Shown piece by piece: positions 2,453 to 17,989 of a stretch of DNA of 64,000 nt (position 1 is the stretch's first letter; each line of letters begins with the position of its first letter). Below the pieces are notes generated by a model. That model made no database searches. It saw only the letters and a list, made by a program, of their open reading frames with translations, and was not told where the DNA came from. The position numbers were made by a program, and so were the translations under genes. The DNA is taken from the NCBI GenBank assembly GCA_964628445.1, contig CAZVOP010000006.1, forward strand, positions 6,723 to 70,722, written 5' to 3'. The stretch is from an uncultured Pseudobdellovibrionaceae bacterium. GTDB taxonomy: Bacteria; Bdellovibrionota; Bdellovibrionia; Bdellovibrionales; UBA1609.

Positions 2453-3598
2453 ATGAGTCGATCAGGAACGTATGTGGATCAACTAACGGGATACAAAGCT
2501 TTTATCCCATCGAACCTGCCGCCACAACCGCCACTCAAACAAGACGACGAACTTACGTACCTTCTCTCGGCAGCAAACCTGGCGTTGGGCAAACTCTCCG
2601 GATTAGCTTCGATCATTTCAGATCCGGACTTATTCGTATATCTGTACGTTCGCAAGGAAGCGCTTTTAAGCTCGCAAATCGAAGGCACCCAGTGTTCGCT
2701 TGAAGATGTTTTGAGCCCCGATGCGGATGCGGAATCGCCAGTTCAAGACATTGAAGAAGTGTCCAATTATGTCAAAGCAATGAATCAAGGTATCGGAAGA
2801 CTGGCGGATTTGCCTGTATGCACCCGCTTAATTAAGGAAATGCATTCGATCTTGATGGCAGGTGTTAGGGGCTCACACAAAACTCCGGGTGAATTTCGAG
2901 AATCGCAGAACTGGATTGGTCGGCCCGGCGCCACACCCTCAACAGCAGAATTTGTTCCGCCACCTCATCACATTGTCGGCAATCTCATGACCGACCTCGA
3001 AAAATTCATTCATACGGAAGATCAAATTGCTCCTTTAATTAAAGCGGCATTCGTACACGCACAATTTGAAACCATTCACCCATTCTTAGACGGCAATGGC
3101 CGACTTGGACGATTGTTGATTACCTATTTGCTCTGCTATTGGAACGTACTCGACCGACCGCTGCTCTACTTAAGCTACTACTTTAAGGCTCACCGTTCTG
3201 AGTACTATGCTCGGCTGATGGACGTGCGTTTGAAGGGTGACTGGGAAAATTGGATAAAATTTTTTCTACGCGCGGTCGCAAGCTCTGCAGACATGGCAAA
3301 TAATGCAGCCGTTGAAATTCATAAGCTTCACAGCGAAGATCGCCGGCGACTCCAAAATAGCAAGCCGACCGCGTATACACTTCAGGCCTTCAACGAATTT
3401 TGTCATTCGCCAATTCTGACAGTTCCACAATTGATCGAGCGGCATAAGTCGACCAAACCTAAAGTACAACGAGCAATTGACCATCTGATTAAGCTAAATA
3501 TTTTAAAGGAAGTGAGCGGGAAGCAAAGAAACCGCCGTTACGCTTATCTTCAATACCTCACCATACTCGTGCGCGACACCACAGAAAAGGCTGGCTGA
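2453..3598 (+). CDS. Fic family protein (AMPylase-type), N-terminal inhibitory helix, C-terminal winged helix
   Basis: Canonical Fic motif HPFLDGNGRLGRLL. The upstream SSQIEG matches the (S/T)xxxE(G/N) auto-inhibition motif. The length (381 aa) and C-terminal DHLIKLNILKEVSGKQRNRRY (wHTH-like) are typical of this class. Confidence 0.9.
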   Translation: MSRSGTYVDQLTGYKAFIPSNLPPQPPLKQDDELTYLLSAANLALGKLSGLASIISDPDLFVYLYVRKEALLSSQIEGTQCSLEDVLSPDADAESPVQDIEEVSNYVKAMNQGIGRLADLPVCTRLIKEMHSILMAGVRGSHKTPGEFRESQNWIGRPGATPSTAEFVPPPHHIVGNLMTDLEKFIHTEDQIAPLIKAAFVHAQFETIHPFLDGNGRLGRLLITYLLCYWNVLDRPLLYLSYYFKAHRSEYYARLMDVRLKGDWENWIKFFLRAVASSADMANNAAVEIHKLHSEDRRRLQNSKPTAYTLQAFNEFCHSPILTVPQLIERHKSTKPKVQRAIDHLIKLNILKEVSGKQRNRRYAYLQYLTILVRDTTEKAG

Positions 3599-4757: not shown

Positions 4758-4775
4758 TGGCGGAGAGGGGGGGAT
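4758..4775. repeat. attL: 18-bp direct repeat of the tRNA-Ser 3' end
   Basis: TGGCGGAGAGGGGGGGAT is identical to 17897-17914. It is intergenic. Confidence 0.75.
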
Positions 4776-4939
4776 GGTCGATCACCCCTTCTAAGCAGTT
4801 GTTAGTATTCACGTTACAGTAATTTCAATAACTTGCCATGTTTCAAGTTCGGCCACTGTCGGTTCCTGACGGTCAATTCGGGTCGACTCGTTCCAAAACT
4901 GGCATAATCATCATTAAGAAGTGCTTTAAAGGATGTACG

Positions 4940-5284
4940 ATGAACAAGTTGATTGAAGAATTGAGCAATCCCCCTTTTCTTGACCTAAATATTCTTCCAA
5001 TAATTATCGTGTTTTTGGGCGCCATACTTGGTCCCTTTTATCCGGGCGTCTACGCATCGACCATTTACGCCTCAGCAATCGTTGGTGCCGTCGTTTTATG
5101 GGAAAAAAAGCAAAAATCTGATGCATACACAAAGCTGTCGAGACTCCACGCAAAAATAGAACTTGGAGAGAAAATTGATATTGAGAAATATCTGAGCAGT
5201 GTCATTGGAGATCGGGATTTTCGATTAATTGGCAAAGAAAACTATGCGGCAATTGTAAGCTATATTTCTTCGAGGCAGAAGTAG
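4940..5284 (+). CDS. small two-TM membrane protein
   Basis: The ORF track gives 4838-5284. The internal ATG at 4940 has AAAGGA 8 nt upstream. Predicted TM segments are ILPIIIVFLGAILGPF and IYASAIVGAVVLW, followed by a charged tail. No family recognised. Confidence 0.5.
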   Translation: MNKLIEELSNPPFLDLNILPIIIVFLGAILGPFYPGVYASTIYASAIVGAVVLWEKKQKSDAYTKLSRLHAKIELGEKIDIEKYLSSVIGDRDFRLIGKENYAAIVSYISSRQK

Positions 5285-5393
5285 AGACGATGTGGACAAA
5301 CCAATTGAGAAGGAAACCATTGATCGTTATCCCCAAGAAAGCTCTTACTAGTGGTCCCAATTCAGTCCCGCCAAGGGATATCGGTGGTGTGCG

Positions 5394-6131
5394 ATGGCGA
5401 CAGGTTACTTTGAGCTAGAAAAATACAGAGCTATGCGAAGGCAAGAGCTGACAGACATGCTCAAGCCGTTTGTTCAAGCAACCGACGCATATGGAGTACT
5501 CATCTGTCGGGTGACCTCAATGCTTGGAGAACATGAGCCATGGTCCACGCAGGATAGAGTCATTCGCGATCTGATGGCTGACGCATTTGATTTCCTCTAC
5601 CAGGCACGAGATCACGTATTGTCTGGATATCTGAACACTGCTTATCCGCTCGCAAGGAGAGCTTACGAAACGATATCTCTAATTGGTGTCAGCATTCAGG
5701 ATGCCTTGGTTGCTGAGAAATGGAATAATTTCGCCAAAGTTGGAAATGCCGAGGTGAGGCGACGCTTAGAAAAGCTGCCATATCGAGAAGACGCTAAGAT
5801 TTTGGCCGAACTTTATGATTTTTATTGTCTGGGCACTCATCCCAATCGGGATTTGATTCCCAATAGACGATTAGGAGAAGGTAATAAATTTGTCCTCGGT
5901 GCTATCGGAATGCCGAATCTAGTACTCACTGTTGATTACTGTATGAAGCTTACCGATTTATGGTTTTGGTTTGGCGCCAATATTTCGATGTTTTACAAAG
6001 CTCAAGCCCAAGAAATGTACCCCGATCATATTGAGAGTTATCGAAAGGTTGCGAAGGATCTCGAAGACTGTAAGGTTTGGTTATCTAAGCAATATAAGAA
6101 CGCCTTAAGAGAGCAAGAGGGGCGCGACTAA
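5394..6131 (+). CDS. hypothetical all-alpha protein
   Basis: 245-aa ORF with a GGTGGTG purine-rich stretch upstream. No catalytic motif recognised. There is only a vague, unverified resemblance to helical Abi-type (DUF5677/AbiV-like) proteins. Confidence 0.5.
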   Translation: MATGYFELEKYRAMRRQELTDMLKPFVQATDAYGVLICRVTSMLGEHEPWSTQDRVIRDLMADAFDFLYQARDHVLSGYLNTAYPLARRAYETISLIGVSIQDALVAEKWNNFAKVGNAEVRRRLEKLPYREDAKILAELYDFYCLGTHPNRDLIPNRRLGEGNKFVLGAIGMPNLVLTVDYCMKLTDLWFWFGANISMFYKAQAQEMYPDHIESYRKVAKDLEDCKVWLSKQYKNALREQEGRD

Positions 6132-6357
6132 AATAATCTACCGTGCCTAGTGTAATATCCAATCCTAGTTCGAATTATTTTATTTAGTGGTACTAAATAA
6201 ATTCTAACGGTAGCAGGGGCCGCCACCCGTAGATCTTCACAAGGGCCGCCGTCAGACATAGCTAGGATTAACACCTAGTTCAAAAACGATAGATGCATTC
6301 CACGATCGACGAGTTGATTTCTGACGGGAGGTCAGCGACTACTCGTAATTTATTATC

Positions 6358-6870
6358 TCAAGCAAAGCCGATCGCCCCGAGGCGAATAGACATTGCCACG
6401 GAGGATACTTCAAACGACATTGCAAGCTGCTGAATTTCGAATTCTTCTAATTGATCCAACACTCCCATTTTGTCTAATTCAAGCTGTATCAATTTTTCCG
6501 GCATAAGAAGTTCTCCTGCAAAAAAATTTGCTTCGATTTCCTTCTTGTATTGAGTCGTTGCGGAATTTTTATCTCGAAAATGAACGATCGGCGTCACATC
6601 AACATTCAATCGTTTTTCTGGATGGAGCATTATATGTCCAAGTTCATGCGCTAACGTAAAGCGCTTGCGACTCTCGGAAAGACGCTTATCTATTAAAATA
6701 GCCTTGGAAGAACCTTTTATGACAGCGGCTCCTGAAATTGCCGCAAGATCTATTTCTACAATCTCAACATTCATTCGCTCTACAATGTCGACAATATTAA
6801 CTGGCACAGTTACTTCATCATCTAACAGTGCGCTTACAATATTTTTTATGTGCTTATACCGTACTGACAT
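6358..6870 (-). CDS. ImmA/IrrE family metallopeptidase
   Basis: RFTLAHELGHIMLH (HExxH) followed by EIEANFFAGELLMP is the signature of ImmA/IrrE (M78-type) peptidases. It overlaps the upstream XRE gene by 17 nt. Confidence 0.85.
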   Translation of the reverse strand: MSVRYKHIKNIVSALLDDEVTVPVNIVDIVERMNVEIVEIDLAAISGAAVIKGSSKAILIDKRLSESRKRFTLAHELGHIMLHPEKRLNVDVTPIVHFRDKNSATTQYKKEIEANFFAGELLMPEKLIQLELDKMGVLDQLEEFEIQQLAMSFEVSSVAMSIRLGAIGFA

Positions 6871-7198
6871 TAAATATTTCCAGCCGCCTTAAATCTTGCT
6901 GAATGTCATGGCCGTGCTCATCTAGTTCGCATTCGAGCATAACCTGATCATATAGATTCTGTATCTTTGCTATTGGAAGCTTAAGACGAAAACAAAACTC
7001 TAGAGCGTGCCTTAGCGTGACACTTTGATGCCCCCCTTCGATATTTGCGATCGAAACTCTGCTTAGGCTGACCATTTGAGCCAACTCTTGCTGACTCAAG
7101 CCATGGGCTTCCCGCAGCTTTCTTATTAAACTTCCAAAGGCTCTATTAAAGTCCTGCATGATTGATCCTGTATAATTGCTTTCCGAGATATCGGTCAA
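6854..7198 (-). CDS. XRE-family HTH repressor (ImmR-like)
   Basis: LIRKLREAHGLSQQELAQMVSLSRVSIANIEGG is a typical HTH_3 motif. It sits directly upstream of, and overlaps, the ImmA-like gene. Confidence 0.85.
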   Translation of the reverse strand: MTDISESNYTGSIMQDFNRAFGSLIRKLREAHGLSQQELAQMVSLSRVSIANIEGGHQSVTLRHALEFCFRLKLPIAKIQNLYDQVMLECELDEHGHDIQQDLRRLEIFNVSTV

Positions 7199-7326
7199 TA
7201 TGCTTGCATACTAGTAAGTAAAGTTTGCTTGCCATATGTCGTGGTCTTGCCTCAGTTCCACTTTAGAATACTTATAATATCCCTATAATTACAAGTATTT
7301 ATATTTAATGCTCATTTTGATATTTA

Positions 7327-7374
7327 CATTTTGCAAAATGCAAACCGCATTTTGCATTTTGCAAAATGCAAAAT
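7327..7374. promoter_or_regulatory. palindromic operator array (ATTTTGC/GCAAAAT heptamers)
   Basis: Perfect 14-bp palindrome CATTTTGCAAAATG (7327-7340) and perfect 26-bp palindrome ATTTTGCATTTTGCAAAATGCAAAAT (7349-7374), giving six full heptamer copies in 48 nt. The array lies between divergent regulator genes. Two TATAAT hexamers sit at 7273-7278 and 7284-7289 just upstream. Confidence 0.6.
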
Positions 7375-7393
7375 TAATGCTACTCTTCCTGAC

Positions 7394-7924
7394 ATGAGAG
7401 AGCAAAAAAGTTTGAAGCCTCAGGATATACTAGTTTTACTCTGGCTACTGCTGCGCCCACAAAAGGAAGAGTCGCTTCGCCATCTAGATATCGCTTATTC
7501 CCTTAAAATTAGCCCTTCGGAGGCGGGTCTTGCTATCAATCGACTTATGAAGTCGCGCTTAATTACGCAAGAAAAGATACCGATCAAAGCGGCAGCCTTG
7601 GAGTTCTTAATTCACGGATTAAAATATGTTTTCCCAGTAGAGCCAGGACCAGTAACTAGGGGGGTACCGACAGCTCACTCTGCTCGCCCCTTATCAAACA
7701 AACTGATTGCGACCAACGACTCCGAAAGCTATGTGTGGCCCGACCCTCAGGGAAAGGCTCGAGGACAAGCCATTATGCCTCTTTATAAGACTGTTCCATA
7801 TGCTGCTAAAAATGATGAAAAACTTCATGAATTTTTAGCATTAATCGATGCCATGAGAGTAGGAAGAGCAAGAGAAGTAAATTTCGCAGTAGAAGAACTG
7901 AAGCGAAGAATAAAAGAGGCTTAA
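7394..7924 (+). CDS. winged-helix DNA-binding protein, AbiEi-like antitoxin candidate
   Basis: N-terminal QDILVLLWLL...LDIAYSLKISPSEAGLAINRLMKSRLI looks like a MarR-type wHTH. The conserved LEFLIHGLKYVFP ... LALIDAMRVG blocks recur in partners of nucleotidyltransferases. The start is uncertain: ATG 7394 has no clear SD, and the alternatives are TTG 7331 or TTG 7412. Confidence 0.5.
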   Translation: MREQKSLKPQDILVLLWLLLRPQKEESLRHLDIAYSLKISPSEAGLAINRLMKSRLITQEKIPIKAAALEFLIHGLKYVFPVEPGPVTRGVPTAHSARPLSNKLIATNDSESYVWPDPQGKARGQAIMPLYKTVPYAAKNDEKLHEFLALIDAMRVGRAREVNFAVEELKRRIKEA

Positions 7925-7925
7925 T

Positions 7926-8615
7926 TTGAAGGACGACAATATTAATATTCTTCGGTTAGCGGTTCATGAATTGGGGCCCCTAGCGAACAACGTGGTCTTT
8001 GTGGGCGGCGCAACCGTTGGACTATATATTACTGACTCTGCTGTACCGAACGTTAGAGCGACAGTTGATGTCGATTGTGTCGTTGAGGTAACAAGCCAAT
8101 CTGGTTACCATGATATCGAAGAGCAACTTCGGGCCCGTGGTTTTTCCCACGATACTCAAGGCCCAATATGTCGTTTTCTCAAGGGCCCACTAATATTAGA
8201 TGTAATGCCAACCTCTGGGTCGATTTTGGGGTTTACAAATCAGTGGTACCCCGAAGGAGTTGCTAACTCAATGAGTGTGGCTCTCTCCCCCGGGCAAGAG
8301 ATCGCTGTTTTCACAAGCCCGTATTTTCTTGCCTCGAAACTCGAAGCTTTTAAAGGGCGGGGCGAAGACGACTTTCGAGCAAGTCATGACCTGGAAGATA
8401 TAATTGCTGTACTAGATGGAAACGAAGGAATTGCCAACCATATTGGTGCCGCCCCTAAAACCGTCCAAGCGTATCTCAAGCAAGAGTTTCAAAAACTCCT
8501 GGGAAACTCCGATTTCTTAGAGGCTATGGAAGGACATATTGCAGACCGACAAAATTCTGGCTCCAGAGTTCGCATAGTGATTTCTAGGATGGCCGAAGTA
8601 TTACGCTTGCCTTGA
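7926..8615 (+). CDS. nucleotidyltransferase, AbiEii/AbiGii-like toxin candidate
   Basis: FVGGATVGLYITDSAVPNVRATVDVDCVV fits the minimal NTase motif GG-x(n)-R-x-T-x-D-x-D. ASKLEAFKGRGEDDFRASHDLEDIIAVL resembles the AbiEii C-terminal block. TTG start with AGAGG 6 nt upstream, 1 nt after the stop of the wHTH gene. Confidence 0.5.
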   Translation: MKDDNINILRLAVHELGPLANNVVFVGGATVGLYITDSAVPNVRATVDVDCVVEVTSQSGYHDIEEQLRARGFSHDTQGPICRFLKGPLILDVMPTSGSILGFTNQWYPEGVANSMSVALSPGQEIAVFTSPYFLASKLEAFKGRGEDDFRASHDLEDIIAVLDGNEGIANHIGAAPKTVQAYLKQEFQKLLGNSDFLEAMEGHIADRQNSGSRVRIVISRMAEVLRLP

Positions 8616-8707
8616 AACGTAAAACTCAAGAGCTGCACACCGAAACCCTCGACCACCATGGGAATAGTTTCTAGTCTAACCTGGATGGAAACAATAATTC
8701 TAGATTT

Positions 8708-8797
8708 ACTCGTTCCAAATTTCGTTTCAATTTAATCATCATGATGAGTCTCTTCCAAAGATCCCGTGCTTTCCCGAAAGTTGGCGGAAATACCGAA
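8708..8797 (+). repeat. bipartite direct repeat, copy A (3' flank of the OLD gene)
   Basis: Block 1 at 8712-8732 and block 2 at 8772-8797 are collinear with 11465-11485 and 11522-11549. See findings. Confidence 0.55.
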
Positions 8798-8939
8798 AAA
8801 ATTCAGCCGATTTCAGAATTGCTATAATGTAATTTAATCGATATCCACAAGCAGACGAATATCTGGAAACCCGCACCTTACCCATTCCGACATCAGGGCC
8901 CTTCTTACCACCTCAATTTCACAGCGATTTACAAGTCCG

Positions 8940-10862
8940 CTAAGCAAAAATCTTATTGATCTCCAAAAACATTTTCTCAAAATTGTCCATAGTCAGACCG
9001 GAAAGATCTCCCTTCCTAAGCCCAACTTGATTCAATTTGTTCGCTGGCCGATAATGATTGAATCTTTCCTTCGATATTACCTTATTAATTTGCTTCACAA
9101 TGGTCGGGAGAGAGGGATCTAGCGTGGAAACATCTACCGGGGGAATCTCCCCTTGAAACGAATCATTGAAGATCTTTAGATAATCATCTTTAGAAAACAA
9201 ATCCTCAATATCTGCAACGGCTTTTCCATTATTAGCGAACTCGTCAAAAAACCTAATATTTTTATCTTTAATGATTTTCATTCGAACAAGATCGTCAACC
9301 CTCTGCTTACCAGACTGGTCTGTATACGTGTCCAGAAGGCACGCCACATTTAACTTGGAGCCTCGCAAAAGCGAGATGAATGTCGATACCTTATCAAGTC
9401 CACCTACTGGTACAATTGTAATGTTGTCTTTCAGAAAGGATCTTCCCTCAATCTCAAGCAGATTGGAAATTGCAGTTAAATAAATAAGGTCGGCCGGACC
9501 TTCAACCAGAAGATTATTTTTCGAAATAAATAAATTCTGCGCAATATCATAACCTAACGCAGCCTGGAGAGGGAAAAGCGTGTTGGGATCTTTCTCTTGG
9601 ATCGTTTCAGAGATAATAGTACCAGCCTCCGTCTCAAGGCAGGTCCTAACACTCGCGAGGCGATCAGACTCAACCATGAATGGCGAATGCGTAGTAAAAA
9701 TGATTTGATATTTTCCCGAGAGGTCTCGGAAGAATTGTAACAGGTCTGCCTGGGCAGAAGCATGAAGATTTAACCCCGGCTCATCAAGTAATAATATATA
9801 TCCCGAATTTTTATCCGCCTGAATTTTACTAAACCATACAATAAACGAAAAGAACCAATTGAACCCCTTGCTGCGGCGATCTAACGGTAGGGTAATTTTA
9901 TGACGACGACTTTTGACCCTAATATCAAGGTATTTTTCTCTAGCCCCCTGATCATTAGTTATGTCCTGAATCTTGAATTCAATATCTAGATTTTTATTTG
10001 TTGACCAATATTTAAATATTTCATTGGTAATCTTGTTTGCCGATGCCTCCAATAGAGCCACATACTTTTCATAATCCTTTTCAACAGCATTCAGAATATC
10101 CGCCGGCCTAATTTTGGCTAACTCAAACAAGGCTCTTGAAGTTTTGTCTCTTTCTGACTTTGGTTCCCCCTGCATTTTGTTTATATTTATTTTTCCGGGA
10201 AGCGGGTAATAGTCGTCAAAATACCAAAATTTTGGAATGTTCGGAACGATCCACTTACTTACAATATATGCCTCAAGTGCATTTTCCCAATTTGGATTGC
10301 CGGCCTGAATTATTTGAGCGATCTCTTTCTTTAATCCCGGGAGGCCCTCGTCGCCCTCCATAGCTTCAACCTGCGATATTTCCTTTATATCTACGATTTT
10401 TGAAATCTTTTTTTTCGTCTCTTTTGAAAGCGTATAGTCTTTTAATTTGAACTCGATAAATTTGCCAACATTAGCCGCAATCCCACTTATGGACTGGGTT
10501 TTATTTTTATAATAATGCGTCCGACTGAACTCCCGGGTAATCAGAACTCCCTCACCTACGTCCTGATCAATCAATTTAGTAAGCTTTGGGGCGATCGCAT
10601 AGTGGCAATTAATTATGTCGCAGTCATCTTCAGCATCTTGAAAATCTATGAGTTCGTTCCTGGGATAGTCCGAAACCATATCGAATTTAAAATCGACGTC
10701 ATTGGAATTAAAATAGTTGGTTTTTGCGATTGCGGTAAGGAACGAGGTTTTTCCAGATTCATTCATTCCAACGATAGTTGTTATCGCTGGGTCAATATTT
10801 ATCTGTTGGGGCTTTTGAATGCTTTTGTACTTGGTTACTTTAACCTTTGTCAGGGTCATCAT
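8940..10862 (-). CDS. OLD-family ATP-dependent endonuclease (ABC-type ATPase + TOPRIM), stand-alone
   Basis: N-terminus MMTLTKVKVTKYKSI...IVGMNESGKTSFL (Walker A), LLLDEPGLNLHASAQ (Walker B/D-loop) and FTTHSPFM (H-loop). The C-terminal part has LLVEGPADLIYL and acidic LLDTYTD (TOPRIM). Start moved from 11054 to ATG 10862, which has AGGA ~10 nt upstream and gives the canonical OLD N-terminus. Confidence 0.8.
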   Translation of the reverse strand: MMTLTKVKVTKYKSIQKPQQINIDPAITTIVGMNESGKTSFLTAIAKTNYFNSNDVDFKFDMVSDYPRNELIDFQDAEDDCDIINCHYAIAPKLTKLIDQDVGEGVLITREFSRTHYYKNKTQSISGIAANVGKFIEFKLKDYTLSKETKKKISKIVDIKEISQVEAMEGDEGLPGLKKEIAQIIQAGNPNWENALEAYIVSKWIVPNIPKFWYFDDYYPLPGKININKMQGEPKSERDKTSRALFELAKIRPADILNAVEKDYEKYVALLEASANKITNEIFKYWSTNKNLDIEFKIQDITNDQGAREKYLDIRVKSRRHKITLPLDRRSKGFNWFFSFIVWFSKIQADKNSGYILLLDEPGLNLHASAQADLLQFFRDLSGKYQIIFTTHSPFMVESDRLASVRTCLETEAGTIISETIQEKDPNTLFPLQAALGYDIAQNLFISKNNLLVEGPADLIYLTAISNLLEIEGRSFLKDNITIVPVGGLDKVSTFISLLRGSKLNVACLLDTYTDQSGKQRVDDLVRMKIIKDKNIRFFDEFANNGKAVADIEDLFSKDDYLKIFNDSFQGEIPPVDVSTLDPSLPTIVKQINKVISKERFNHYRPANKLNQVGLRKGDLSGLTMDNFEKMFLEINKIFA

Positions 10863-11217
10863 AGATAAAATCCTGTTTATAGTCTTATTGTTGTTTGATG
10901 TGTTATTGTTGCCTAGGTGGCGTGAATTTCCAATCCCATATGTGTAAGCGCGGCTGAGGTCGGGCGCGGCGTGGGCCACCTGAAGTTCAGAAAAATCGCG
11001 ATCCACCTGGCGCCAAAGGACCTTTGAACCAAGACGGTGCGGGCTGTCGAGCATACAACAGCAGCTACTGCCAATACGCGTACACTTCCTTGGTCCAGAT
11101 GTAATCTCAGGATGAAACAGAACGACTCTAGACTTTAGGTCTCTTAGCCGTGGAAATAATTTTTATGGATCGATTTGCAGCGTCTAGTCCAAACACAATT
11201 TTTTTCGGAGGGGATAA

Positions 11218-11301
11218 ATGTCCAGCGATGTAGTTTGCATAATTGCCGGCCTGGCACTTTCTTTGGCGGGCTCATTGGTTACGGTTGGGTTGCCCCAATA
11301 A
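11218..11301 (+). CDS. candidate 27-aa hydrophobic peptide (type I toxin-like small ORF)
   Basis: GGAGGGG (11207-11213) lies 4 nt before the ATG. It translates to MSSDVVCIIAGLALSLAGSLVTVGLPQ, a single TM-length hydrophobic core. A perfect 7-bp hairpin GCCTCCA-GATT-TGGAGGC at 11317-11334 follows the stop. The ORF is too short for statistical support. Confidence 0.3.
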   Translation: MSSDVVCIIAGLALSLAGSLVTVGLPQ

Positions 11302-11460
11302 GGGTTCTGTTAGTAGGCGCCTCCAGATTTGGAGGCTGCCCCCCGATAAAATTGAATATTACGATAGAAAAATTCGGAAAGATGCGACTATTGCCCGCAT
11401 CCTCTAAGTGCTGGGAGGTTTTTTGCAAATATACGGAAGCCTGCAGTTTAAAATAGTTCC

Positions 11461-11549
11461 CCTTGTTCCAAATTTTGCTTCAATTATTTAGCCCCCATAA
11501 AATATCCGTGTTTTCGTATACTCCCGTCGATATTGGCGGAAACACCGAA
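11461..11549 (+). repeat. bipartite direct repeat, copy B (far upstream of the OLD gene, upstream of XRE gene 11712)
   Basis: Collinear with 8708-8797. GTTCCAAATTTYGYTTCAATT matches 19/21, and TCCCG-N4-6-TTGGCGGAAAYACCGAA also matches. Confidence 0.55.
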
Positions 11550-11711
11550 TCTTCGCCAAACAATTAAAGTTTGCATTCCATATCTGCACCGATAAAGGTC
11601 TTGCCTGAATCACAAAACGGGTAGCCGTGCCACAGGCACAGTCAATCGTTCGTTACAACGGCTAACGGGAAAGCAGTTCCAAGTTCAATCTTATATGTCG
11701 ATCATGAACCT

Positions 11712-12005
11712 ATGAAACTAAATGTCGGGAATGTTTTAACGGAGATCTTTCGCGAACGGCGTTTGACCATAAAGGAAGTTGCCAAAGCCAGCGGCGTTCC
11801 TGCGTCTACTCTCAGCGAATGGAAACTTAACCGTGCCCCAAAGAACCCTGAACAAGCATTGAAGGTCGCCGAGGCCCTCGACATATCCCTACACTTTCTG
11901 CTATTCGGTGTCGAGGACCGGCAAGAGCCTCTACAAAAGCTGCTCAAAGAAGACGTATTTAGCGGCACTTTCGAAATCAACATTAAACGAATCAAGATAA
12001 AATAG
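11712..12005 (+). CDS. XRE-family HTH regulator (Cro/CI-like)
   Basis: LTEIFRERRLTIKEVAKASGVPASTLSEWKLNR is an HTH_3-type motif. 97 aa. Confidence 0.8.
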   Translation: MKLNVGNVLTEIFRERRLTIKEVAKASGVPASTLSEWKLNRAPKNPEQALKVAEALDISLHFLLFGVEDRQEPLQKLLKEDVFSGTFEINIKRIKIK

Positions 12006-12015
12006 GAGAACAGCA

Positions 12016-12648
12016 ATGCAACTTCGGTTAGAAAATCGATCTCTAAGCTTGGTACGCGCATCAGCTATATTCTGCGCATTGAGCCTCACTGCCTGTGCTT
12101 CCATGGGAGCGTACAATGCACGTACATATGCGCAAATCAGACATAAGCGCACCTACGAGCCCGTAAATGCCAAGGAGTTCAAAGTCGAGGACTCAAATTT
12201 GATCGCTGAGTACACACCGGACATTTTGGACGCCGGCACAAGCTTTCAATTCACCAACAAAACCAACAAGGTCATTAAGATCATTTGGGATGAAACAGCC
12301 TACCTTGCTCCAAGCGGTCAGTCCGAAAGGATCTTTCATGCTGGCGTTAAACTAATAGATCGTGGTCAATCTCAGCCACCCACAGTCATTCCACCTCGGG
12401 GCCATCTCTTGGATGACTTAATTCCTATTGCGAATGTTGAGCCTGGATCCGGCCAGTTTGCAGCTTGGAGATACAACACCATGTGTGGAACGCAAAGCCT
12501 ACCGACAAGAGAGCTTCAAGATGCCGAATGCATTGGAAAAATATTCGGATATTTTCTGACCTACGAGATTGATGGGAAGAAAAAGAATATGACAGCTCAA
12601 TTTAGATTTGTTTCGAAGGAGCCTCTCCCAAAAGAAAGCGCAAAGTAG
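12016..12648 (+). CDS. lipoprotein, unknown function
   Basis: Signal peptide with lipobox LSLTAC. Starts 10 nt after the XRE gene stop. No family recognised. Confidence 0.55.
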   Translation: MQLRLENRSLSLVRASAIFCALSLTACASMGAYNARTYAQIRHKRTYEPVNAKEFKVEDSNLIAEYTPDILDAGTSFQFTNKTNKVIKIIWDETAYLAPSGQSERIFHAGVKLIDRGQSQPPTVIPPRGHLLDDLIPIANVEPGSGQFAAWRYNTMCGTQSLPTRELQDAECIGKIFGYFLTYEIDGKKKNMTAQFRFVSKEPLPKESAK

Positions 12649-12680
12649 CAAGCTCGACAGATCTGCCCGCAGTCTTCAAA

Positions 12681-13142
12681 TTAAGTTGCGGGTGATTCGG
12701 AGTTATCTTTCGATGATTGTTTTTCTAAATAGCGCAGGTGTGATTGATTGATTACTTGTAGCCTTTTTCTTTCTTCCAAAAGCTCTTCAATTGACCATTC
12801 TTCATATCGGAGCGGAGCTGGCTCCTCCATTACGTTGCCGGCTTTACCAATGGCCCGATCCAAGAGCCTCTCGAATGCACAAGCATTACCCGTTTCTAAA
12901 ATATGCAAAATAATCTTTATTAGGCATAGTTCAATCGCCGCCAAATCTTTAAGTTGGGACTTGGCACGTAGCTCTTCTTCAGTAAGAAAAAAATTCTGAC
13001 TGATATACCGTGAGAGCATTTCCTTACTCAACTCACGGACCACTCGCTCCTCACTGGTGTACGAAGCTCCGCCCTTAGGCCTTCCACCTCGCCTGCCGAT
13101 CTGATTGCCAGCTCTAAAACTCGTTCGATTTTTTTTGCCCAT
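12681..13142 (-). CDS. hypothetical protein with N-terminal GNQxGxxGGRPKG motif (DUF5681 / small-terminase-like?)
   Basis: Start set at MGKKNRTSFRAGNQIGRRGGRPKG (ATG 13142). The basic N-terminal motif resembles phage DUF5681/TerS-like DNA-binding N-termini. The assignment is weak. Confidence 0.4.
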   Translation of the reverse strand: MGKKNRTSFRAGNQIGRRGGRPKGGASYTSEERVVRELSKEMLSRYISQNFFLTEEELRAKSQLKDLAAIELCLIKIILHILETGNACAFERLLDRAIGKAGNVMEEPAPLRYEEWSIEELLEERKRLQVINQSHLRYLEKQSSKDNSESPAT

Positions 13143-13242
13143 ATATAGGCATTCTGCCGGTTCGCTGCGCGGCATGTCAATCGCGCGCTCATCTTATATA
13201 TCCCACTGGCTGAATGAAGAAATTCACAGGAGCGAAGTCCAA

Positions 13243-13920
13243 ATGAAACCCTCTCAAAACACAACCACGCAGGCATGGCTGCCCGCTGAAGCCCAAGCGT
13301 TTTATTCATCGAAGACCTTCAAGGAAGCCCCTTCCCAGTTCTCCTGGATACAATCCCAACATATGAAAAGGGTCTGGCAATGCTTCGACCGTTTACCAAA
13401 GAATCGACGGAAGGAAATCACCAAGTTCATCGAATTGCTTCCGATTATTCTCAAACATTCGCAAGAACGAAAGGCTAAGAAACAAATAAATGACTGGCTT
13501 GGTGAAATTACGAGCGCCGCCGCCAAAATAAAGAGAAACATGGACTTGCTTCAAGAATTTGATGGCTTCTCTTTCGAATTGCCTTCGCATGAGGCCGTAC
13601 TCGAAATTGAGCAGGCGACTGAGTTGCGGTCGAGACAGCTAAACGACGATTTAATTGACCTTTATCTAGGTAAAGAGTTCGCACGCGTTGGCTTTTTTAA
13701 AAAAAAGACGTCAAAAGATGCGGTTGAAATCTATCTAATAAAAACTCTTATCAAATTATTTAAAAAATATTTTAATAAACCTAACTATTTGTTGGCCGGA
13801 ATAACCGCGTTGGTGCTTACAAATAACAATAAATATGTAGATGGTGCTGGAAATTTGGAGATTGATCTCATCAGAGATCGTGCGACAAAACTCGCAAAAA
13901 TAGGGAACATTCCTCTCTAA
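13243..13920 (+). CDS. hypothetical protein
   Basis: The ORF track gives 13105-13920, but its first 46 codons overlap the divergent gene. ATG 13243 has AGGAG 11 nt upstream. No motif recognised. Confidence 0.4.
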   Translation: MKPSQNTTTQAWLPAEAQAFYSSKTFKEAPSQFSWIQSQHMKRVWQCFDRLPKNRRKEITKFIELLPIILKHSQERKAKKQINDWLGEITSAAAKIKRNMDLLQEFDGFSFELPSHEAVLEIEQATELRSRQLNDDLIDLYLGKEFARVGFFKKKTSKDAVEIYLIKTLIKLFKKYFNKPNYLLAGITALVLTNNNKYVDGAGNLEIDLIRDRATKLAKIGNIPL

Positions 13921-13996
13921 ATTTAGCAGAATCGTCTCTACTCCCTTTAAGCCCCTTCGAATAAGTTCGCTCCTTTAAAACAAAGGAGTCAGAATC

Positions 13997-16213
13997 ATGA
14001 AATCGGAAAATAATTCGGATCAGTTACAGGAAGCATTGAGACTACACAAATTAGGATTCGGAATTCACTGGCTAAGGCCTCACTCCAAAATACCTGTGAA
14101 AAGTGGTTGGACAAATGGGGGGCGACTATCGCCAAGTTCTCTCAAAAATGAATTTAGAACAGGAATGAATATCGGGGTTCGCCTAGGCAAAGCTTCGAAA
14201 CTGCGATCCGGAGGGTTCCTTGCAATAATCGATTGCGATGTAAAATCCTCGGCGCCCAAGCACCTTCAGGAGATGACCGCTAAGCTGAACGAACTATTTC
14301 CAGACTATAAGAAAGCGCCCTGCGTGAAATCTGGCCGAGGCAACGGATCGGCCCACTACTATTTGCAAACATCTGAGCCAACGGCACCATACAGAGCTTC
14401 TCAAAGTTCTGAGAAAGTCCCAGTTCACATGCCCGGAATTTCTCCATCAGCAAATGACAAGGTTTCGCTCAGCAAAAAGCAAATTGAAAAAGGTCTGCGC
14501 CTAAGAGCTGCGTGGGAAATTTCGGTTATGGGAGAAGGCCAACAGGTCGTATTGCCCCCCTCCATTCATCCTGATACCGGAATTACTTATCAATGGGTTC
14601 GCCCCCTGAAAGATGACGCTGAAATTCCAACACTCGGCCTCAAAGGCTCTTCGAAAAAAATTGAGAAAGCCACGATCGACGACTTCGAATTTGAAACTAT
14701 CGACCTGAAGAAATCAACTCTCCCACTAGAACTGATCGACGGCATCATCGACGGCGATGGCGTTGAAGATCGATCCGCGTTTCTCTTCAAAGTCGCCATT
14801 GCCATGTTTCGGGAGGGATGGGGTGATAAACAAATTTTGTCAGTTTTGACTGACAAAAATCTCTATATTGGAAAAACCGCTTTTGATCACTGCAAAACTC
14901 AATCGCGCAAAAAAGCCGCACAGTGGATAAGCGACTACACTCTATCCAAAGTGAAAATCGAACACTCGGCAGCTAATGCATTTGACGACCTGGCCGTAGT
15001 CGATGGGAAAGATAGCGATTGGAAACGATCTCTTGATCGCAACAGGTATGAGCGTCCTCACCCGAGTTTCAAAAATATCAAACTGATTTTAGGAAAAACT
15101 GTTAATGAACCTCTTCTCGCTAGAAACGAATTTTCTATGGAGGACATCTGGCTTACCGATACTCCCTGGAACACCAAAGCCGGCATGCCTATTACCGATT
15201 GCGACTCCATTCAAATAAAAGATTGGCTTGCTCATAAGTGGAGGATAGAGCCAAACAAGGATAAGATCGAAGAAGTTCTTCAACAATTTGCAATGGAGAA
15301 CTCATTTCACCCAGTACGGAAATACCTAAAAGCTCTAGAGTGGGACAAAACCAAAAGAATAAATTCTTGGCTAAAAACATATCTCAAAGCAAATGGTCCT
15401 GAACGTTACTTGCAAGCTGTCGGTCAAAAACTTCTATGTGCGATGGTGAAAAGAATCTTCGTGCCCGGATGTAAGTTTGATCAGGTTGTAATTTTAGAGG
15501 GGCTCCAAGGAGTCGGCAAAAGCACCACGGTAAGAATTTTGGCTGACCCTTGGTTTTCTGATTCTCATTTAAATATTGGCGACAAAGATGCCGTGATGAA
15601 TATGCAGGGCATTTGGGTTTACGAACTGGGGGAGCTTTCTGCAATGAGACGAGCCGAAACCAACACCTTAAAAGAGTTCATTACTCGCTCAACGGATCGC
15701 ATCCGACCGCCCTATGGCAAAAGGACAATATCGTTCCCAAGACAATCTGTTTTTATTGGAACGACGAACTCTAAAGAGTATTTGAAAGACCCCTCGGGAA
15801 ATCGACGCTTTTGGCCAGTTGAGGTCGGAAGGATTGACCTGAAGGCACTGCAGAAGGATCGCGATCAATTGTTGGCCGAAGCCGTGGTTTATTCAAAAAT
15901 GGAATCTCTTTGGATTGAAGATGAGTCGATTCAAGAGCTTGAACGTCATGAACAATATTTACGAGTAGAGCACGATGAGCTGAAAGATCTCATACAAGAA
16001 TTTTTGGAAGATTCGAACAATCTCTTTCCCAAACAATTTAAAATTTCAGATCTTCTCGAACGCGTGCCATTCACTTCTATGCGACACGATATTGGATTAG
16101 AAAGACGAATCCATGCATCTCTTAGAGCCCTAGGTTATGACAACCGGGAAAAGTGGGATAAGGCCTTGTGCCGTAACGTCCGACGGTGGCGAAAGCTGAA
16201 ACCTTTAAGGTAG
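13997..16213 (+). CDS. bifunctional primase-polymerase (Prim-Pol) / VirE-type P-loop replication protein
   Basis: The N-terminal part has LGFGIHWLRPHSKIPVKSGW and AIIDCDVKS (Prim-Pol domain with DxD). The C-terminal part has VVILEGLQGVGKST (Walker A) ... FITRSTDRIRPPYGKRTISFPRQSVFIGTTN ... GNRRFWPV, typical of the VirE/D5-like family. Confidence 0.85.
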   Translation: MKSENNSDQLQEALRLHKLGFGIHWLRPHSKIPVKSGWTNGGRLSPSSLKNEFRTGMNIGVRLGKASKLRSGGFLAIIDCDVKSSAPKHLQEMTAKLNELFPDYKKAPCVKSGRGNGSAHYYLQTSEPTAPYRASQSSEKVPVHMPGISPSANDKVSLSKKQIEKGLRLRAAWEISVMGEGQQVVLPPSIHPDTGITYQWVRPLKDDAEIPTLGLKGSSKKIEKATIDDFEFETIDLKKSTLPLELIDGIIDGDGVEDRSAFLFKVAIAMFREGWGDKQILSVLTDKNLYIGKTAFDHCKTQSRKKAAQWISDYTLSKVKIEHSAANAFDDLAVVDGKDSDWKRSLDRNRYERPHPSFKNIKLILGKTVNEPLLARNEFSMEDIWLTDTPWNTKAGMPITDCDSIQIKDWLAHKWRIEPNKDKIEEVLQQFAMENSFHPVRKYLKALEWDKTKRINSWLKTYLKANGPERYLQAVGQKLLCAMVKRIFVPGCKFDQVVILEGLQGVGKSTTVRILADPWFSDSHLNIGDKDAVMNMQGIWVYELGELSAMRRAETNTLKEFITRSTDRIRPPYGKRTISFPRQSVFIGTTNSKEYLKDPSGNRRFWPVEVGRIDLKALQKDRDQLLAEAVVYSKMESLWIEDESIQELERHEQYLRVEHDELKDLIQEFLEDSNNLFPKQFKISDLLERVPFTSMRHDIGLERRIHASLRALGYDNREKWDKALCRNVRRWRKLKPLR

Positions 16214-16356
16214 AGCCTCACACCGAACTGCAAATTTCTCTAAAATGATTACAAATAACAGGTTAACAGGGTGGCCACCACGCAGCCAAAGTGTCTGGAA
16301 GACAAGCTGTGCGGTGTGCGCTTTCCTTTATTGAACCGTAAATAGGGATCAAGTAC

Positions 16357-16647
16357 ATGGAAGACAAACTATCGGCGTCCAATACTGAACTTGGATTGAT
16401 TGAACGACATAGACTCCATATCAGTCAGCAGTCAGAAATACGTACCAAGTCCGATGGATCTGATAAAGATTGGTTCTTTGAAAATCGAGTGGCTCTTTCG
16501 GTCTCAGAAGCAGCTTTCGCACTAGGTGTATCTGTTCGCACTGTCGAACGAATGATTCGACGAAATGAACTTAGAATCCGCCGCCTAGGCAAACGCATTC
16601 TGATTCCGAAAGAAGAACTTGGAGCATGGCTCAGCCGAAAGGAATGA
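16357..16647 (+). CDS. excisionase/AlpA-type HTH DNA-binding protein
   Basis: LSVSEAAFALGVSVRTVERMIRRNELRIRRLGKRILIPKEEL matches the excisionase-family HTH pattern. It sits immediately upstream of the integrase. Confidence 0.7.
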   Translation: MEDKLSASNTELGLIERHRLHISQQSEIRTKSDGSDKDWFFENRVALSVSEAAFALGVSVRTVERMIRRNELRIRRLGKRILIPKEELGAWLSRKE

Positions 16648-16650
16648 GCT

Positions 16651-17862
16651 ATGTCCAAAATTGATAGAGCAGTGCCCAAACATCCACAGATTTATCGCGT
16701 TCATGATGTCGATAGTCTGGGAAAGATGAGCCCCACAAGCACGTATCGAGTTCGAAAGCGCGTAAAGGTTAACGGCAAGTGGAGTACAAAGGTGACAACC
16801 TTTAGCAGCTTCGAAGACGCCAAACATTTTGCGCGGCAAAAGTTCGACATCAACGTCATGGGTGCAATCCAAATGCGCTTTAGTGAAGTCCTCAGCAAGT
16901 TTTTGCACCATAAAGAATTTGAAGAGCTGCGCGCTCCGGGTACGATTCACGGTTATCGATCAAGAGCTAAGCATTTTAAATTCTTCGATGACCTTTCCAT
17001 GCGCGATATCACACCTCAAGTGATCGACGGATGGGCGAATCTCATGCTTGATCCGCAGTACAAGGCACTTCAACAAAGCTCCAGAGCGGACTACGACCAT
17101 GAACTGACTTTGCTTTCCGCGATCCTGAGATATCATCGCGAGTATTGGGATGAAACTTACGTCGTCCCAATTATGAGACGACACCGAAAGCGGCTTTGCC
17201 CTCATCGAAAATGTAAGGACGAGATTCGCTACCTCTCCGGTGAGCAAGAACTTCTTTTTCTTGAAGCGCTGAAGCCTTGGCCAGTTGTCCACGATATCGC
17301 CTTATTCCAGCTCCATACCGGGGCTCGCATCGGTGAAGCCGCCGCGATGGATTTTGGCGCGGTCGAATTTGTGAAACATCAGGTTCATATTCGACAACAT
17401 CTTCACTGGGACCGAGTTAAGAAGGGGCAAATATCGATCTTAAAGGGCACCAAGGCCGGACCGGATCGAACCGTGCCTCTAACGTCGGAATGTCTTGATA
17501 TGCTTCGCCATCGCTACCAGACACGCTCTGGATCGGTTGTATTCGCCGACCCCAAACGCGTTACTGGGTGGATGCACTACAGGAGTATTCAAGCCATCTA
17601 TGATCGAGCTTTTGAGAGGCTTGGCTTTTCTCACCGTGGAACCCACACCCTTAGACACACTTTCGCCGTTCGCTTTCTCGAACAAACGAAGGACGTCTAT
17701 GCACTTCAGCGGGCGCTTGGACATACGGATCTGGAAATGACGATGAGATATGCGAAGTACTCCAACGATTCCGTGCGAAAAGCGTTTCAAATTTTTCGCG
17801 GTGGAAGAGAAAACGCCAAAGGTGACGTTCCAAATTTGTTACATGGAACAAGCACCCAATGA
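16651..17862 (+). CDS. int: tyrosine recombinase / phage-type integrase
   Basis: The C-terminal catalytic blocks are TGARIGEA, HTLRHTFAVRFL and LGHTDLEMTMRYAKY (R..HxxR..H..Y). It ends 35 nt from the tRNA-Ser 3' end. Confidence 0.9.
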   Translation: MSKIDRAVPKHPQIYRVHDVDSLGKMSPTSTYRVRKRVKVNGKWSTKVTTFSSFEDAKHFARQKFDINVMGAIQMRFSEVLSKFLHHKEFEELRAPGTIHGYRSRAKHFKFFDDLSMRDITPQVIDGWANLMLDPQYKALQQSSRADYDHELTLLSAILRYHREYWDETYVVPIMRRHRKRLCPHRKCKDEIRYLSGEQELLFLEALKPWPVVHDIALFQLHTGARIGEAAAMDFGAVEFVKHQVHIRQHLHWDRVKKGQISILKGTKAGPDRTVPLTSECLDMLRHRYQTRSGSVVFADPKRVTGWMHYRSIQAIYDRAFERLGFSHRGTHTLRHTFAVRFLEQTKDVYALQRALGHTDLEMTMRYAKYSNDSVRKAFQIFRGGRENAKGDVPNLLHGTSTQ

Positions 17863-17896
17863 GTTTTCTAAGTGATTTCAACAGGTCCCAAAGAAC

Positions 17897-17914
17897 TGGC
17901 GGAGAGGGGGGGAT
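17897..17914. repeat. attR: 18-bp repeat within the tRNA-Ser 3' end
   Basis: Identical to 4758-4775. Confidence 0.75.
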
Positions 17915-17989
17915 TTGAACCCCCGGTACAGGTTTACCCTGTACGACAGTTTAGCAAACTGCTGGTTTAAGCCACTCACCCACCTCTCC
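17897..17989 (-). tRNA. tRNA-Ser(GCU): tRNA-Ser (anticodon GCU)
   Basis: The reverse complement folds as acceptor GGAGAGG/CCTCTCC, anticodon stem-loop GCAGT-TTGCTAA-ACTGT, long variable arm, T-arm GGGGG-TTCAAAT-CCCCC, with encoded CCA. Confidence 0.9.

Follow-up and report, generated by a model that had tools for sequence, protein, structure and literature searches.

In an uncultured Pseudobdellovibrionaceae bacterium (contig CAZVOP010000006.1), a solitary OLD-family nuclease gene is framed by two copies of a two-part direct repeat, and we consider it probable that this repeat is a relic of the junction at which the end of an integrase gene meets an attachment (att) core, the two copies being internal relics or secondary copies of that junction within a tRNA-integrated island. 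The window referred to throughout is the whole 64-kb stretch that was analysed. The copies flanking the OLD gene are called A (left) and B (right), and each is made up of a block 1 followed by a block 2. The features of the resulting module are as follows.

8709-8735, plus strand: copy A block 1, putative relic of the 3' end of an integrase reading frame (…LLVPNFVSI, stop), including GTTCCAAATTT 70 nucleotides (nt) before the core.
8781-8797, plus strand: copy A block 2, att-core-like site TTGGCGGAAATACCGAA, with TGGCGGA common to attL, attR and the tRNA-Ser 3' end.
8798-8939, plus strand: right flank of core A, showing weak homology to the stretch that separates core B from the XRE gene; the OLD gene's 3' end truncates it.
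8940-10862, minus strand: OLD-family ATPase-Toprim nuclease of 640 residues, the cargo of the A-B module.
11462-11491, plus strand: copy B block 1, putative relic of the 3' end of an integrase reading frame (…PLVPNFASII, stop), including GTTCCAAATTT 69 nt before the core.
11533-11549, plus strand: copy B block 2, TTGGCGGAAACACCGAA, a site resembling an att core that precedes the XRE start codon by 178 nt, with TGGCGGAA as its counterpart in the related island L191.

A repeat search of the window paired the two versions of block 1 with 21 of 24 positions identical (8709-8732 and 11462-11485) and the two versions of block 2 with 16 of 17 identical (8781-8797 and 11533-11549). The pairs are collinear, with start-to-start offsets of 2753 nt for block 1 and 2752 nt for block 2, and the distance from block 1 to block 2 is 69 nt in A and 68 nt in B. 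The 21-mer GTTCCAAATTTYGYTTCAATT occurs in the window solely at 8712 and 11465, where 0.04 matches are expected in 64 kb, and the block 2 pattern TTGGCGGAAAYACCGAA matches exactly at 8781 and 11533. The spacer of about 48 nt has diverged strongly between A and B (its global-alignment score is reached by 55 of 500 shuffles), and pairwise alignment finds weak similarity between the copies over about 150 nt rightward of block 2. The original prediction, which had described a real bipartite repeat with conserved block spacing and a diverged spacer, is upheld on each of these points. Coincidence in AT-rich intergenic DNA could appeal to the lack of significant spacer similarity, but this explanation has next to no likelihood and is refuted by the shuffles, none of 100 of which equalled the real count for block 1 (two sites for the 21-mer), block 2 or the combined pattern, and by the recurrence of the same arrangement in an independent genome, that of L191.

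When the window was searched for GTTCCAAATTT-N{50,75}-TGGCGGA, three matches were returned, at 8712, 11465 and 17827, with gaps of 59, 58 and 59 nt. The third copy, which spans 17827-17903 and had gone unnoticed in the original prediction, lies at a live junction formed by an integrase gene and a tRNA gene, and the matching att core is found at the opposite end of the island.

4758-4775, plus strand: attL core, with which the island begins on the left; its 18 nt, the direct repeat TGGCGGAGAGGGGGGGAT, match the tRNA-Ser(gct) 3' end exactly.
16651-17862, plus strand: resident tyrosine integrase (PF00589, 1.4e-21), whose last codons (…GDVPNLLHGTSTQ, stop) hold the third copy of block 1.
17897-17989, minus strand: tRNA-Ser(gct), whose 3' end (17897-17914) is the attR core and the equivalent of block 2.

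The 11-mer GTTCCAAATTT at 17827-17837 falls within the last codons of the resident integrase (…FQIFRGGRENAKGDVPNLLHGTSTQ, stop), while TGGCGGA at 17897, 70 nt past GTTCCAAATTT, is the 3' end of tRNA-Ser(gct) and hence the attR core; at this junction 35 nt separate the integrase stop codon at 17862 from the tRNA 3' end at 17897. The repeat TGGCGGAGAGGGGGGGAT is identical at 18 of 18 positions between 4758-4775 and 17897-17914, and these two tRNA-end sequences therefore delimit an island of 13.1 kb (4758-17914) that is inserted in the 3' end of tRNA-Ser(gct) and has the make-up of a tRNA-integrated tyrosine-recombinase island. The local alignment score of 36 between attL and attR was reached by 0 of 500 shuffles. 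The GC content of the island is 0.41-0.46 against 0.52 for the host, and low values (0.40-0.48) extend from position 1 of the window to about 17900, compared with about 0.52 for the rest. The earlier suggestion of a mobile island is supported. As the third copy is the integrase end and tRNA-Ser junction, the bipartite element is the integrase-proximal att junction of the island, and A and B are further versions of this junction in the island's interior. The blocks had also been taken for borders specific to an exchangeable cassette, which does not hold, since the same pair forms the attR of this island and that of L191.

L191 is an island from a sediment metagenome, reached through a 51%-identical primase, and is the sole syntenic relative that was retrieved. 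Its genes run in the order XRE, two or three small open reading frames (ORFs), PrimPol-VapE, HTH_17, integrase and tRNA-Ser(tga), it carries its own 18-nt attL/attR repeat (ATTGGCGGAGAGGGTGAG), and its integrase ends in …DLVPQLVPKQRDL before the stop, encoded by CTCGTTCCACAGCTTGTTCCAAAACAG…. When copy A, copy B and the live junctions of the window and L191 are aligned, the four sequences run almost without gaps over 97 columns, with GTTCCA.A..T.G.T.CA and TGGCGGA.A invariant and at the same spacing in all four; by hand count, copy A matches the L191 integrase 3' end at 16 of 21 positions of block 1. In both inner copies block 1 ends an in-frame ORF (LLVPNFVSI, stop, in A; PLVPNFASII, stop, in B), and one of the two substitutions that separate A from B within it is synonymous (TTC/TTT). 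Several related tails are found among the integrases of the family (PLVPQLVPRNA, PLVSQLVSRSEV, FVPRAVPQR and NVPNFLKV; by representative, SPLVPQLVPRNA for P0342, PLVSQLVS for P0300 and NVPNFLKV for P0415), and these fit the reading frames of A and B.

Further support comes from the place that copy B occupies. Homologues of the XRE protein at 59-72% identity are found at the far end of small integrase islands, and in L105, L107, L109 and L191 a distance of 170-440 nt separates the XRE homologue from the attL copy of the tRNA end upstream of it, compared with 178 nt for core B; copy B therefore sits at the spot, just upstream of XRE, that attL takes in simpler relatives. In L105 a 17-nt copy of a tRNA-Leu end is found 356 nt upstream of XRE, with the integrase and tRNA-Leu 6.5 kb further on, and in L107 a 30-nt copy of a tRNA end, by eye that of tRNA-Ser(tga), is found 440 nt upstream. 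In L191 itself, the segment alignable with copy B still has TGGCGGAA, at 169 nt upstream of XRE, and the B-type inner junction is for this reason probably old.

The arrangement can be accounted for by a simple origin of each part. Block 1 would represent the last integrase codons (LVPxΦV(P/S)…stop), probably doubling as an arm-type integrase site with the motif GTTCCA(A); block 2 would be TGGCGGA…, a crossover core that goes back to the tRNA-Ser acceptor end; and the 45-60 nt between them would be the non-coding gap from the integrase stop codon to the core. A and B would then each consist of a few final integrase codons, a core and a rightward stretch resembling the XRE-proximal arm of the island. 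From the observed identities, positions, reading frames and synteny we infer an order of events in which related islands integrated or recombined in tandem at att-type sites, a process known as accretion, after which the integrase and most genes of the inner elements would have been deleted, leaving a 2.75-kb integrase-less module from core A to core B with OLD as its cargo. While the source islands were live, coding and recombination constraint would have held the blocks and left the spacer free to drift. The original prediction had argued that conserved blocks around a diverged spacer call for selection; two diverged islands of one family would give the same pattern, so that selection in the present day is not needed and past constraint on codons and core suffices.

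The present layout reads, from left to right, core A, a short stretch resembling the XRE arm, OLD, about 600 nt, the integrase-tail relic of B, core B and a complete element running from XRE to the integrase. This is the product expected of tandem accretion at att sites followed by deletion, and accretion with later decay is the most likely origin. No recombinase ORF or pseudogene was found between A and B (8798-11461), and the roughly 600 nt to the right of OLD hold no integrase remnant. As in a cis-mobilizable element (CIME), the internal att-type junctions are in direct orientation with attL and attR, and the inner module is without integration genes. For the conjugative (ICE) and mobilizable (IME) kinds of integrative element, such a route has been reviewed in three steps, namely integration, decay to a CIME and integration of a second element (PMC5704250). 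The process is thus a known one, of which this is a new example, and it is ordinary for tRNA-integrated islands.

Several observations weigh against this interpretation. The likeness of the spacer among the three window copies is marginal, the alignment score being reached by 20 of 500 shuffles for A against attR and by 9 of 500 for B against attR, beside the 55 of 500 for A against B. No integrase pseudogene was detected by tblastn or blastn upstream of block 1 in either copy beyond about 10 codons, where the matches are noise, and peptide similarity upstream of VPN in A and B is not significant; without a longer pseudogene, an origin as a pure DNA-binding site cannot be separated from one as a coding relic. 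Between the resident tRNA-Ser and cores A and B (TGGCGGAAAYACCGAA) the match is confined to TGGCGGA(.A), and no tRNA ending like these cores (TTCGGTRTTTCCGCCA as a tRNA 3' end) was found among the loci examined. Parsed as a tRNA end, the A/B core gives a non-canonical T stem. The inner core that L191 keeps upstream of XRE is accompanied by a degenerate block 1, which hints at an old shared event or at some function of the inner core, and statements about the family rest on two islands, the window's and L191. A strict tRNA 3' end was rejected as a description of block 2, as its T stem would begin with T61, no T arm follows and none of the loci examined has the sequence; the part that resembles tRNA-Ser is TGGCGGA(AA) only (compare L107).

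The spacing of one short motif is relevant to whether the inner copies could still be recombined. Two features next to attL are needed here.

4818-4860, plus strand: attL-proximal P' arm box of 43 nt, 88% identical to L191 377-419 (blastn).
4890-4898, plus strand: GTTCCAAAA, 132 nt from the attL core and a candidate arm-type integrase site; L191 has the same motif at +133.

GTTCCAA occurs six times on the plus strand of the window, five of them within the island (4890, 8712, 11465, 11676 and 17827), and GTTCCA(A) stands at set distances from att cores, at about -70/-59 and at +132 to +142, the L191 sites being 450, 12280 and 12292. The motif is a plausible candidate for an arm-type integrase binding site, a role inferred from its position at +132/+133 from attL in both islands together with the -70 position. 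The 43-nt box, which overlaps the start of a window ORF (4838-5284) and is more conserved than any coding segment that aligns with L191, probably represents the functional P' arm of attP.

It could accordingly be proposed that A and B are still functional att sites, at which the integrase and excisionase excise, capture or swap the OLD module, making the module cis-mobilizable and the cargo region a platform for site-specific capture of defence genes. Both copies do keep exact TGGCGGA and GTTCCAAATTT at -69/-70 in direct orientation, plus-strand GTTCCAA is nearly confined to arm-like positions (-70 of three cores, +132 of attL and +142 of core B), the motif recurs in L191 at +133 and -59, the L191 cargo between the P' arm and XRE is wholly different from that of the window, and cis-mobilization of such modules has been documented elsewhere (PMC5704250). 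We nevertheless regard active sites as unlikely. Past constraint on codons and core fully explains the conservation of the blocks, neither A nor B has on its right a recognisable P' box like that of the true attL (4818-4860), just 7-9 nt are identical to the live core, and no alternative configuration, such as an island without the OLD module, was found in the public data searched. A broader version, in which islands of this family generally keep functional inner att sites (GTTCCA(A) arm and TGGCGGA core), the integrase captures and exchanges integrase-less defence modules in an integron-like manner, and the inner core upstream of XRE couples recombination state to regulation, is likewise unlikely.

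The position of copy B, 160-250 nt upstream of XRE, also allows the repeat to be viewed as a duplicated transcriptional control region, providing a promoter or operator for the XRE repressor or for another island regulator. The retention of inner TGGCGGAA upstream of XRE in L191 and a TATAAT hexamer after copy A, at about 8823, would be in keeping with this. The third copy, however, is inside the junction of the integrase 3' end and the tRNA gene, in front of no gene, and copy A faces the 3' end of a convergent gene; a consensus scan found no extended sigma-70-like -35/-10 match in either copy and fewer promoter-like sites than in shuffles, and the motif that is common upstream of XRE homologues is an AGTCGTT-like one that lies nearer the gene and outside the blocks. 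A control region is therefore very unlikely to be what was duplicated. All relatives examined carry AGTCGTT(C/T)-like repeats at 40-110 nt upstream of their XRE homologue (L105 7900-7960, L107 about 690-730, L109 about 7730-7760; in the window CAGTCAATCGTTCGTTAC at about 11640-11660), and these are a candidate operator for the XRE repressor, distinct from the blocks.

A structured nucleic acid (a small RNA, a leader of the riboswitch kind, or a hairpin that defines a cassette as integron attC sites do) would share with the repeat its conserved ends and variable centre, a resemblance to attC that is superficial. Compared with dinucleotide shuffles, neither copy shows better folding on either strand (z = +1.76, -0.34, +0.99 and +0.62), no Rfam match was obtained at E <= 1, blocks 1 and 2 are not mutually complementary, the only integrase is of the tRNA-targeting phage type and not of the IntI type, and block 1 is coding in the live copy, all of which makes a structured element highly improbable. 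Among the three options that the original prediction had offered for the blocks, recombination borders proved essentially right, whereas the RNA element found no backing in folding or in Rfam; an attC-like cassette fails likewise, there being no hairpin. Integron cassettes do resemble the module in presenting a single, promoter-less-looking gene between short repeats with conserved ends and a variable centre, but here the repeats are direct, form no hairpins, are not accompanied by IntI and go back to the 3' end of an integrase gene and the end of a tRNA.

The gene enclosed by the two copies encodes an N-terminal ABC-type ATPase (Pfam AAA_15, 3e-23, residues 2-397, and AAA_21), with Walker A and Walker B motifs visible in the translation (GMNESGKTS and LLLDEPG), and a C-terminal Toprim domain in the same polypeptide (PF20469 OLD-like_TOPRIM, 3.5e-9, residues 445-511). 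Its best PADLOC match is 'Old' (7e-29), and its best match among solved structures is the Class 1 OLD of Thermus scotoductus, 6P74, a distant one (E = 1e-9, residues 311-500). Its neighbours are PDC-M21B, an ORF of 27 residues and the XRE regulator, and inspection of the neighbouring genes revealed no UvrD/PcrA-like helicase (Class 2), reverse transcriptase or ncRNA (Class 3), split AriA/AriB (Class 4) or separate Toprim gene. By context-based classification (PMC10568477) the predicted product is a single-gene, Class 1-type nuclease, in agreement with the partner-less OLD protein of the original prediction, whose remark on AT-richness also stands: the gene lies in the lowest-GC kilobases of the window (0.40), and its coding sequence has a GC content of 0.394. 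Its presumed role is that of an anti-phage effector that does not depend on the repeats.

The clade to which this protein belongs is very large and uniform; its members, of 636-645 residues and at about 70% identity, come from Bacteroidota, Paenibacillus, candidate phyla and other groups; no characterised member was present among the search matches. These homologues are widespread as lone genes in unrelated contexts with neighbours that are not conserved, and none of the homologue loci checked in other genomes has the blocks. Upstream, the reading frame of the window gene runs on through a GC-rich patch (about 10910-11060) as far as an ATG at 11054 (10863-11054, minus strand; 704 residues); since the homologues have 636-645 residues, 10862 is taken as the correct start. 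A 48-residue ORF stands 22 nt upstream of some 71%-identical homologues (L021 5833-5979, L022 825-971, L023 39-185). It was rejected as a partner gene, being not conserved and absent from the window and from L024.

Beyond the A-B module, the right part of the island holds the genes for its regulation, replication and recombination.

11712-12005, plus strand: XRE/cI-like helix-turn-helix (HTH) regulator, the first gene inside attL in relatives.
13997-16213, plus strand: PrimPol-VapE replication protein, the replication gene of the island.
16357-16647, plus strand: excisionase-like HTH gene, a DNA-level homologue of the L191 HTH_17 gene.

The island opens on the left with a pair of small ORFs; next come, on the minus strand, a capP-like protease and its XRE gene, then PDC-M21A/B, copy A and OLD (minus strand), followed by the 27-residue ORF with terminator-like hairpins, copy B, the XRE/cI-like gene, three ORFs without domain hits, PrimPol-VapE, the excisionase-like HTH gene and the integrase. 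Alignment with L191 by blastn yields five segments only, namely the 43-nt box (88%) and the XRE, primase, xis/int and integrase 3' regions (68-77%), and the cargo between the P' arm and XRE is unrelated in the two islands; the region between the conserved island ends is, on this comparison, a putative variable cargo hotspot. At L191 735-5876 this cargo consists of a RES-Xre toxin-antitoxin pair, an SMC_N/AAA_21 ATPase of 1019 residues (minus strand) and a Zn-ribbon protein.

Defence-type cargo in the window includes a TIR-like effector, SoFic, the capP-like protease with its XRE partner and PDC-M21A/B (PADLOC 1e-45 and 5e-63), at 494-1462, 2453-3598, 6358-7198 (minus strand) and 7331-8615. The TIR-like effector and SoFic lie outside attL (4758), in a stretch that is still low in GC (0.466), a sign that another island or hotspot may lie to the left. 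Between OLD and copy B, the hydrophobic 27-residue ORF (MSSDVVCIIAGLALSLAGSLVTVGLPQ, 11218-11301, plus strand) has GGAGG 7 nt upstream and is followed on its 3' side by a GC-rich hairpin (11308-11335) and then by back-to-back terminator-like hairpins on both strands (11378-11424); it could encode a small membrane peptide or be a type I toxin-like gene. Most relatives of the PrimPol-VapE protein (45-53% identity) come from contigs of 38-46 kb, among them L193, a phage that carries genes for terminase, portal and capsid. The island thus has a replication module related to that of phages, a hint that it may live in the manner of a satellite.

Public data yielded little else that bears on the repeat. 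Look-ups of the exact products of the window OLD gene (two candidate starts, and P0001) and of PDC-M21B gave no match, and an identical XRE protein was found on a contig of 923 nt that ends short of block 2. The strict block pattern had 0 matches in JGI metagenome contigs, and the conserved P' box had 0 in viral contigs; a loose block 1 to block 2 pattern had 19 matches in viral contigs, all rejected as chance, since they fall in coding sequence and do not extend into the blocks. The primase alone gave no match in genome contigs, and alignment of the primase gave relatives of at most 46% identity, all without the blocks, and, in viral contigs, phages without a related integrase or XRE. The integrase had no match in viral contigs, and in metagenome contigs its alignment, which relied on a generic catalytic motif, gave matches of at most 38% identity that were not used.

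The closest known parallels are composite islands and CIMEs, such as ICESt1/CIME of Streptococcus thermophilus and the tandem IME/ICE arrays at tRNA genes (PMC5704250), with which the present case shares a tyrosine-integrase island at a tRNA 3' end, direct att-like inner sites and an integrase-less module bracketed by att-type junctions with an adaptive cargo gene. It differs in host and island family, being a small PrimPol-VapE/XRE island without conjugation genes, with relatives from Pseudobdellovibrio-like metagenome-assembled genomes and a sediment metagenome, and in having inner sites that share only 7-9 nt with the live core. The nuclease, like P2 Old, the Thermus scotoductus OLD (6P74) and the Class 1 OLD of Vibrio cholerae (PMC12392090), joins an ABC-type ATPase and a C-terminal Toprim in one polypeptide, is borne by a mobile element and has no adjacent helicase, reverse transcriptase or separate Toprim gene; unlike those of the original Class 1 description (PMC10568477), it sits in a defence-rich island. 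As in the P2/P4 defence hotspots (Rousset et al. 2022, cited in PMC10568477), variable defence cargo (OLD, PDC-M21AB and the capP-like/XRE pair) lies between conserved ends, but relic att junctions here point to accretion by site-specific recombination as the route by which cargo arrived. In contrast to P4-like satellites, the island is without psu, sid, delta-type or capsid genes.

Taken as the relic of an integrase-end junction, a repeat whose conserved blocks and diverged spacer were puzzling gains a simple origin in an integrase C-terminus and a tRNA-derived core, and the island (4758-17914) and its modules become delimited. It provides an example of defence cargo (OLD, PDC-M21 and capP-like genes) accumulating by att-site accretion in small tRNA-Ser islands of a poorly studied lineage. 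Relic junctions of this kind could mark module boundaries and cargo hotspots in other islands and, were the inner sites active after all, the island would offer a tractable model for the site-specific exchange of defence genes.

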